A stretch of 64,000 nucleotides of DNA from Rickettsiaceae bacterium. GTDB taxonomy: Bacteria; Pseudomonadota; Alphaproteobacteria; Rickettsiales; Rickettsiaceae. A program made the translations under genes and the position numbers. Every line of letters begins with the position of its first letter. Position 1 is the stretch's first letter. Shown piece after piece: positions 10,106 through 11,105 of the stretch. Location of the stretch: contig JAQXDF010000040.1 of NCBI GenBank assembly GCA_029251475.1, forward strand, positions 18,535 to 82,534. Direction: 5' to 3'. Below the pieces are notes generated by a model. That model saw nothing but the letters and a program-made list of their open reading frames with translations, was not told the DNA's origin and did not search any database.

Positions 10106-10741
10106 CTATATAACTAGCATAATTTGGCCTTGATGTATTTTAATAGAGACCTCGGCGGCGCTCGCTTGATTTCTGGCGCTTGATTTTCCTGCCATGGATA
10201 GGTGCGTATTGTCCAAATTCCACTTCAATCCTTCAGTAGATAAAGTAGCTTCTGGGTAGGGCAGTAGAGAAACCTTATCGCCGATTTTTGTTTTGAAATT
10301 AAATTGATCATATATTGGAATGCAATATTGAGCTTTTTTGGAGCTTCTATTATTATAGAAAACCATGGGGTGTTTATTTCCGTATTTCATTAAGCAACGC
10401 ATATTATTGATGGCATGATCTACTTCTTTGCCGAGTCCACCGCAAACAAGGGCGGGGAATAGAGATCTTTTCTCCATTTCTAAAATTGATTTTTCATAAT
10501 CCGTACTATTTTGATCGGCATGCTTTATATACTCAATATTGGGGTGATTTAAATCTCCAGCAAACGAATCAAAATCTCCAATTATCATCTTGGGATAAAT
10601 GCCCATCTTGATCAAAGAAGCACCAGCTCCATCGGCTGCAATGATTATAAGATTTGGGTGTTTGTTAAAAAAACTCTTCGGTGGTATATCTCCATTTAAA
10701 CAAAGTATACTCTTGAAAGAATCAAATTTGATTTTAGTCAT
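10106..10741 (-). CDS. thiN: Thiamine pyrophosphokinase (thiamine diphosphokinase)
   Basis: 211 aa with GDFDS, DQNSTDYEKS, GGLGKEVDH..NN and EGLKWNL blocks typical of TPK. Its ATG overlaps the upstream stop codon (ATGACTAA). Confidence 0.85.
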   Translation of the reverse strand: MTKIKFDSFKSILCLNGDIPPKSFFNKHPNLIIIAADGAGASLIKMGIYPKMIIGDFDSFAGDLNHPNIEYIKHADQNSTDYEKSILEMEKRSLFPALVCGGLGKEVDHAINNMRCLMKYGNKHPMVFYNNRSSKKAQYCIPIYDQFNFKTKIGDKVSLLPYPEATLSTEGLKWNLDNTHLSMAGKSSARNQASAAEVSIKIHQGQIMLVI

Positions 10742-10985
10742 AGATATATTTTAGAAAAAGTAGAATGATAGAAAAAATAAGCATAATCACATTAGTTCCC
10801 CAAACAACCATGCTTGTGATCATTACTCCATAGATTATCCATAAAACTGACGTAACAAAAAAATTAAGTAGCATCAGATAGGATAAATCATAAGATGATT
10901 TTAATTTATATGTTCTATAAATTTGAGGTATTAAAGAAATAGTGGAAGTAAAAGCGGCCATAAAGCCTATAATACTAATAATCAT
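10734..10985 (-). CDS. SemiSWEET / PQ-loop family small membrane protein (3 TM)
   Basis: 83 aa. Has the PQ motif (SLIPQIYRTYK) in TM1 and W..YG (LWIIYGV) in TM2. Length and topology match bacterial SemiSWEETs. Confidence 0.75.
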   Translation of the reverse strand: MIISIIGFMAAFTSTISLIPQIYRTYKLKSSYDLSYLMLLNFFVTSVLWIIYGVMITSMVVWGTNVIMLIFSIILLFLKYIYD

Positions 10986-11074
10986 ATAACATTCCTACGC
11001 TAGCATTATCCAGTTCAGGTTTGCGGGTTGGCACAATGCCTCTCAGCTTATTAAAGCACCCCGAGTTCTGTAAT
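10986..11074 (-). promoter_or_regulatory. TPP (THI-box) riboswitch aptamer
   Basis: The minus strand reads ACUCGGGGUGCUUUAAUAAGCUGAGAGGCAUUGUGCCAACCCGCAAACCUGAACUGGAUAAUGCUAGCGUAGGAAUGUUAU-AUG. It carries the invariant GGGGUGC, CUGAGA, ACCC, ACCUGA, CUGGAUAAUGC.AGCGUAGG(G)AA boxes in the order seen in E. coli thiM. Confidence 0.88.
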
Positions 11075-11076
11075 AG

Positions 11077-11105
11077 AATTTATATAAATCAGCTAATGGA
11101 GTCAA
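11077..11105 (-). promoter_or_regulatory. Candidate promoter for the riboswitch-SemiSWEET-thiN transcript
   Basis: Minus strand has TTGACT (11105-11100), followed by TATAAA / TAAATT after 15-17 nt, just upstream of the aptamer. Confidence 0.35.

Follow-up and report, generated by a model that had tools for sequence, protein, structure and literature searches.

We analysed a 64,000-nucleotide (nt) stretch of DNA from a Rickettsiaceae bacterium (GenBank assembly GCA_029251475.1, contig JAQXDF010000040.1, positions 18,535 to 82,534 of the forward strand), referred to here as the window. On its minus strand, a thiamine pyrophosphate (TPP) riboswitch aptamer is followed directly by a gene for an 83-amino-acid SemiSWEET protein and then by a gene for thiamine pyrophosphokinase (TPK). 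The features of this cassette are collected in Table 1. An earlier reading of the DNA (the original prediction) had proposed that the three parts together constitute a thiamine importer of a new class. The gene upstream of the cassette is pntB, which ends at 11157, and on the other flank a gene for an M61-type peptidase converges on TPK; the cassette thus forms an operon of two genes headed by a leader of its own.

Table 1 Features of the riboswitch–SemiSWEET–TPK cassette in the window
Feature	Position	Strand	Evidence
Thiamine pyrophosphokinase (ThiN/Tnr3 type), 211 amino acids	10106..10741	(-)	TIGR01378, PF04263 and PF04265
8-nt overlap ATGACTAA of SemiSWEET stop codon and TPK start codon	10734..10741	(-)	Sequence and list of open reading frames
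SemiSWEET, 83 amino acids, three transmembrane (TM) helices, PQ motif P20-Q21, pocket W49 and N65; proposed thiamine facilitator	10734..10985	(-)	Pfam, profile search of the Protein Data Bank (PDB), AlphaFold2, Foldseek
TPP riboswitch aptamer (THI element)	10975..11073	(-)	RF00059 full model 1-105, 63.0 bits vs gathering score 54.3, E 5.4e-10
Shine-Dalgarno (SD) AGGA	10993..10996	(-)	Within conserved aptamer element GCGUAGGAA, 7 nt 5′ of AUG
Promoter-like site TTGACT-17 nt-TAAATT (inferred)	11077..11105	(-)	Consensus match only, 9/12 positions

When all 64 kb were searched with Rfam models, RF00059 was the only riboswitch to be found. The match is significant, lying above the gathering score, and it is the same element as the THI-box that had been placed at 10986–11074 of the minus strand; the motifs GGGGUGC, CUGAGA, ACCC, ACCUGA and CUGGAUAAUGCUAGCGUAGGAA are all present in the order originally quoted. 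Its P1 stem is formed by a 5′ strand at 11064–11068 and a 3′ strand at 10987–10991. When scored with a covariance model that we built for the cassette aptamers (R1; see below), the element reached 85.7 bits. The promoter-like site further upstream is suitably positioned, in that the predicted transcript would start at about 11070, two bases 5′ of P1; the consensus match by itself is insignificant, with 5 such sites found against 7.2 expected.

The gene that follows the aptamer encodes a true SemiSWEET. The 83-amino-acid protein scored above the Pfam cutoffs for the PQ-loop family (PF04193, 44.3 bits; cutoff, 22) and for MtN3_slv (PF03083, 27.5 bits; cutoff, 23.7), and a profile built from its close homologues matched the SemiSWEET structures in the PDB (4QNC/5UHS, E 2e-17; 4RNG, E 2e-16; 4X5M, E 5e-13). 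An AlphaFold2 model based on 56 homologues (mean pLDDT 91.9) showed three TM helices with a kink in TM1 at residues 16–18. In a Foldseek search, this model was closest to TySemiSWEET (4RNG_C; TM-score 0.96, root-mean-square deviation 0.9 Å), followed by the remaining SemiSWEET structures and then by eukaryotic SWEETs, cystinosin and MPC, in line with the three-TM PQ-loop/SemiSWEET call of the original prediction. No Pnu structure was among the Foldseek matches, and the protein had no match to PF04973 (NMN_transporter/Pnu) at E ≤ 1. The P20-Q21 hinge and the W49/N65 pair, which corresponds to W48/N64 of LbSemiSWEET, vary little or not at all among the homologues.

This SemiSWEET belongs to a compact clade. 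It missed the cutoffs of all the NCBIfam subfamilies, namely SemiSWEET_2 (63 vs 80 bits), SemiSWEET_3 (20.5 vs 100 bits) and SemiSWEET_1 (16.4 vs 200 bits). A search of 1.84 billion representative proteins gave 7053 members of the SemiSWEET superfamily at E ≤ 1e-3, among which the clade that carries the cassette makes up only about the top dozen representatives. In public databases, the clade proteins bear the names 'Sugar transporter SemiSWEET' or 'SemiSWEET family sugar transporter'.

The identity of the second gene is equally plain, as its product exceeded the cutoff of the TPK equivalog model TIGR01378 (113.3 bits; cutoff, 76.4) and matched both PF04263 (62.8 bits) and PF04265 (36.2 bits). 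This gene and the SemiSWEET gene share 8 nt where the stop codon of the latter meets the start codon of TPK, exactly as had been described. The identical overlap occurs in five related loci (L002, L008–L010 and L012); overlap is limited to these closest relatives, and in the others a spacer of roughly 10–75 nt lies between SemiSWEET and TPK. In the window, TPK is probably coupled translationally to the SemiSWEET gene through this ATGA-type overlap.

We examined the conservation of the cassette in relatives drawn from three sources: a pattern scan of GTDB genomes (L001–L007), a scan of JGI metagenomes (L008–L034) and exact look-ups of database homologues (L035–L045). After de-duplication, and with the gene of the window excluded, the set comprised 35 distinct clade genes. 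TPK lies directly 3′ of the SemiSWEET gene in 33 of them, and the other two (L003 and L034) end at a contig end; TPK is thus kept in 33/33 testable loci, with 28–64% identity to the window protein. Likewise, 33/35 have an RF00059 aptamer that extends at its 3′ end to the start codon, and most of these aptamers score above the gathering score. Those of L008–L010 and L021 lie within 2 bits of it, and L001 (3871–4010) and L003 (3786–4004), from Rickettsiaceae or other alphaproteobacterial sources, fall below it (39–40 bits, E ~1e-4) because of inserts of 50 and 113 nt in P3; their core aptamer motifs are all intact. The two exceptions are L022, which has a broken aptamer (see below), and L028, whose contig stops 33 nt before the gene, so that only the 3′ half of the aptamer is visible.

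The cassettes come from Rickettsiaceae and Rickettsiales metagenome-assembled genomes (MAGs), a Francisellaceae MAG, other gammaproteobacterial MAGs, a Myxococcota MAG and Candidatus Anoxychlamydiales. A Neptunochlamydia protein (P0110) is a clade member by sequence, and its gene context could not be read. The order of riboswitch, SemiSWEET and TPK is common to Alphaproteobacteria, Gammaproteobacteria and Chlamydiota. Because the same parts recur in the same order in independent relatives, we regard the linkage as far beyond chance. The computational checks named in the original prediction, on the RF00059 hit, on the family and fold of the small protein and on the linkage in relatives, thus all came out in its favour.

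Three loci of this set deserve separate mention. In L022 (1–160), an Anoxychlamydiales-type contig of 1.2 kb, the 5′ half of the aptamer (GGGGUGC...CUGAGA...ACCUGA) is replaced by unrelated sequence, and the 3′ half of the aptamer, the SemiSWEET gene and TPK are intact; this locus may represent either a decayed, deregulated riboswitch or an assembly chimera. In L017 (109–341), a 5S rRNA gene ends 20 nt 5′ of the aptamer, and in L007 (1–1412) a 16S rRNA gene is found some 2.5 kb before the cassette. Such neighbours are odd for a salvage operon, and they may reflect the dispersed rRNA genes typical of Rickettsiales.

We next consider the structure of the leader RNA. Only 10 pairs emerged when RNAalifold was run on the unprocessed MAFFT alignment. 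For this reason, 26 aptamers and the structure derived from Rfam were used to construct a covariance model, to which 31 homologous aptamers were then re-aligned. In this alignment, 88% of the cells of the P1–P5 architecture are standard pairs, and 18/25 pairs show compensatory changes on both sides; both numbers come from an alignment made to fit the structure, which biases them toward it. None of 500 shuffles reached the observed pairing and no slid register came close. Judged from these patterns, the cassette aptamers are under structural selection.

The position of the ribosome-binding site suggests how the aptamer may act. The SD sequence of the window lies inside the element GCGUAGGAA, which consists of the 3′ strand of P4 and the junction, and the ATG of the SemiSWEET gene stands 7 nt past the AGGA. 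In all 35 relatives, the only purine-rich, SD-like element before the AUG is the CG-N-AGG(G/A)A of the aptamer itself, at a distance of 5–13 nt (mode, 7–9), and the spacer is filled by the 3′ strand of P1. No terminator was predicted between the aptamer and the gene, and there is no room for one. Since the SD sequence is part of the aptamer, control is most likely translational and exerted without a separate expression platform; binding of TPP would close P4 and P1 and thereby hide the ribosome-binding site directly.

Our search for an alternative, ON-state helix that would compete with the aptamer gave no consistent candidate in the folds of 25 homologues. In the minimum-free-energy fold of the window leader, L5/P5 pairs with codons 4–7 (z = 0.58). 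A weak but recurrent pairing was seen in the minimum-free-energy folds of many homologues, between the invariant GGGG in stem P2 of the aptamer and the ACYUC in the codons of the likewise invariant F-T-S-T motif, about 40 nt into the gene (10940–10960 in the window, and the equivalent site in homologues). It could be a coincidence imposed by protein constraint or a long-range ON-state pairing.

Conservation of the riboswitch–SemiSWEET–TPK unit across many intracellular bacteria is a strong indication that this SemiSWEET branch imports vitamin B1 rather than sugar. We consider it likely that the SemiSWEET imports thiamine under the control of TPP, the cassette being a TPP-repressed facilitator combined with a trapping kinase. 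At low TPP, the leader would be unlocked, the ribosome would reach the AGGA inside the aptamer and both genes would be translated. The SemiSWEET, presumably as a homodimer like the solved SemiSWEETs, would mediate facilitated diffusion of free thiamine through the inner membrane, and since thiamine is a cation, its entry would be favoured by the membrane potential. TPK would then convert thiamine to TPP in one step; as TPP could not leave the cell, the net result would be accumulation by metabolic trapping. At high TPP, the bound aptamer would close P4 and P1 over the SD sequence and the spacer and turn off translation of the operon. Read in this manner, two genes and one leader RNA would make up a self-contained salvage operon for vitamin B1, for which we infer the substrate, the direction of transport, the dimeric state, the off-switch mechanism and the translational coupling.

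The clade differs from the crystallized sugar SemiSWEETs at several positions, all on pocket-facing turns of TM1–TM3. In TM1, T13-S14 replaces L/I-T; on the face of TM2 that bears the pocket tryptophan, N41 replaces M/F and [T/S/C]45-S46 replaces G-V/I; and in TM3, A/S60 replaces P and, in most sequences, W62 replaces I. W49 and N65 are unchanged. These polar and aromatic replacements fit a remodelled pocket, although they are suggestive only. We also looked for a single diagnostic pocket residue and found none, as N41 is I in some true cassette members.

Several points weigh against thiamine import. Our statements on thiamine transport, binding and regulation are computational. The predicted pocket has gained no acidic residue that would face the thiazolium charge, and residue 58, an aspartate in LbSemiSWEET, is a serine here. 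N41 is changed to I in 3/121 sequences, including the cassette-bearing L038 and the Francisellaceae form, and W62 is present in only 74/121. The covariation count carries the bias already mentioned. The genomic view of thiC/E/G/L and of other thiamine transporters is limited to 64 kb; no thiamine biosynthesis gene was found in the window, a result that has no bearing on what the rest of the genome encodes. Finally, the homologue P0103 scores 123 bits against the clade profile, as true members do, yet lacks both TPK and the aptamer. P0103 departs from the clade at M38T, N41I and F42L; its gene (L036, 3001–3255) overlaps the end of a gene for a GerE/LuxR-type regulator in a region rich in helix-turn-helix genes, and it may be a recently re-purposed paralogue.

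P0103 is one of three non-cassette SemiSWEET homologues beside which TPK and the aptamer are both absent, the others being P0134 (L042/L043), whose neighbours are type VI and type II secretion genes, and P0129 (L045). Riboswitch and kinase thus accompany the SemiSWEET as a pair or not at all. P0129 (L045, 2501–3091) is, like P0124, P0130, P0136 and P0137, a two-repeat, fused (SWEET-like) bacterial protein of 190–216 amino acids that scores close to the clade. We considered whether P0124 and P0129 could be a full-SWEET form of the carrier and rejected this idea, as they have no TPK and no aptamer (one readable context, with no thiamine link).

Could the cassette protein nonetheless be an ordinary sugar uniporter that merely shares an operon with TPK? 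Its conserved sugar-pocket residues W49 and N65 would suit this role, as would its public annotation. However, the TPP switch ends at the start codon in 33/35 relatives from three phyla, relatives that lack TPK also lack the switch, the pocket-side substitutions are the clade's own and no gene of sugar metabolism is linked. The gene context thus argues against sugar as the physiological substrate, and we hold a sugar uniporter to be the least probable of the readings considered here. The strict pairing of the two genes, with their overlap in the closest relatives, would fit a physical complex as well, in which the small membrane protein is no carrier but serves TPK as a membrane anchor or as a partner in regulation; alternatively, it might export a by-product of thiamine. 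Either role is very improbable in our judgement, given that the transport architecture of SemiSWEETs is kept in full, PQ hinge and W/N pocket included, that an exporter repressed by TPP would make little regulatory sense and that TPKs elsewhere are soluble enzymes.

A closer competitor is a carrier that obeys the same riboswitch logic but takes up another thiamine-related compound, such as a thiazole or pyrimidine precursor, thiamine monophosphate (ThMP) or a thiamine analogue. TPP riboswitches do control transporters of precursors, including cytX, thiXYZ and ykoEDC (list in PMC3766115). Yet the invariable partner of the SemiSWEET, found in every testable locus, is TPK, which acts on thiamine itself, and thiD, thiM and thiE, which precursors would require, are absent from all locus flanks with called genes. 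We therefore consider such a substrate unlikely, and thiamine remains the substrate that we favour.

A cassette of the same logic exists in Bacteroides thetaiotaomicron, where pnuT-tnr3 combines a TPP riboswitch, a small energy-independent facilitator and TPK, with metabolic trapping. The two differ in the carrier, which in our case is an 83-amino-acid, three-TM SemiSWEET (PF04193/PF03083) that would require homodimerization, whereas PnuT is a Pnu protein with 7–8 TM helices; they also differ in taxa, our cassette being found in intracellular Proteobacteria and Chlamydiota. By analogy, the cassette carrier would be PnuT-like in its working, but it is not a member of the Pnu family. The Pnu fold is reportedly SWEET-like, as Jaehme et al. 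are said to have described in 2014. Like the leader described here, the TPP riboswitches of the Bacteroides transport operons (pnuT-tnr3) appear to act on translation (bioRxiv 10.1101/867226).

The protein resembles the sugar SemiSWEETs (LbSemiSWEET, 4QNC; TySemiSWEET, 4RNG; EcSemiSWEET, 4X5M; and BjSemiSWEET) in sequence (35–37% identity), fold (TM-scores 0.85–0.96), PQ motif and Trp/Asn pair. It differs from them in its vitamin B1 context, its clade-own residues, its scores below the NCBIfam cutoffs and its proposed cationic vitamin substrate. Other systems for the uptake of thiamine or its precursors, namely ThiT-ECF, ThiBPQ, ThiXYZ, YkoEDC, CytX, ThiU, ThiW and omp_thi, are likewise regulated by RF00059 elements, and they belong to protein families unrelated to SemiSWEET. 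The 19 TPP-regulated transporter genes catalogued by Sun et al. (2013) include no MtN3, PQ-loop or SemiSWEET protein. Thus, an arrangement of riboswitch, facilitator and trapping kinase is known as a type, but the SemiSWEET family is not known in the role of the carrier.

The original prediction had also claimed novelty for the cassette, and this claim stands in part. In the searchable open literature (subscription-only papers, RegPrecise, TCDB and SEED lying outside the search), we found no paper that brings together SemiSWEET and a riboswitch, or a PQ-loop/MtN3 protein and a TPP riboswitch, and neither the riboswitch link nor the clade-wide conservation was described there. The adjacency of TPK and SemiSWEET has a precedent, the only one that the search brought up: Jia et al. 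(2018; PMC5972207) noted it for Legionella cherrii in one sentence on one genome, without a riboswitch, a clade, an analysis of conservation or an explicit proposal of thiamine transport. The same authors state that nothing is known of the physiological role of bacterial SemiSWEETs.

Against this background, the cassette offers the first well-supported hypothesis for the physiological substrate of a SemiSWEET, and one that is easy to test. On balance, we lean towards a broader view, in which the compact clade is an unrecognised family of vitamin B1 importers, misannotated as sugar transporters, and the ~1-kb riboswitch–carrier–kinase module has spread through obligate intracellular bacteria of unrelated groups (Rickettsiales, Chlamydiota, Francisellaceae and other Gammaproteobacteria); a SemiSWEET would then for the first time have an assigned physiological role and, also for the first time, a substrate that is cationic and not a sugar. 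If this is true, the SemiSWEET family would extend from sugars to a cationic vitamin, the gap to the SWEET-like Pnu carriers would narrow, and the annotation 'sugar transporter' would have to be corrected on hundreds of database entries. The cassette could also provide a model carrier of 83 amino acids for structural studies of vitamin transport, as well as a TPP riboswitch of minimal size with the SD sequence inside its aptamer.

The finding bears on the vitamin B1 supply of obligate intracellular bacteria. According to a metabolic reconstruction for the genus Rickettsia, thiamine is neither made nor phosphorylated, so that thiamine diphosphate (ThDP) has to be imported by a carrier that is not known (PMC5615194). 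The relative described here has a seemingly complete unit for thiamine import and activation, in contrast to the import of ThDP postulated for Rickettsia.

The remainder of the window agrees with the host-restricted context that the original prediction had supposed. The window is AT-rich (35% GC) and of Rickettsiaceae type, and its minus strand carries an rvh-type type IV secretion system (T4SS) cluster at 19101–23690 with virB9, virB10, virB11 and virD4. VirD4 and VirB11 scored 1100 bits against model NF010472 and 608 bits against NF010475, respectively, and virB9 encodes only 138 amino acids, which match the N-terminal half of the VirB9 model. Since this rvh-type cluster is present, we take the organism to be a Rickettsiales-type intracellular bacterium of the obligate-intracellular type. 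An alphaproteobacterial mipZ and a cluster of ribosomal protein genes are also found in the window.

Two further sets of genes resemble those for effectors. Two adjacent open reading frames on the minus strand (16308–17066 and 15602–16246) match positions 110–326 and 354–491, respectively, of the model for RisK1, a Rickettsia T4SS effector PI3-kinase (NF047983), and the latter reading frame has an additional, ankyrin-like region at its C-terminus. The pair looks like a split or pseudogenised effector gene, or like a two-piece one. A 531-amino-acid protein encoded at 41892–43487 of the minus strand consists almost entirely of eukaryote-type leucine-rich repeats (LRR_6, 153 bits) and is a candidate secreted effector.

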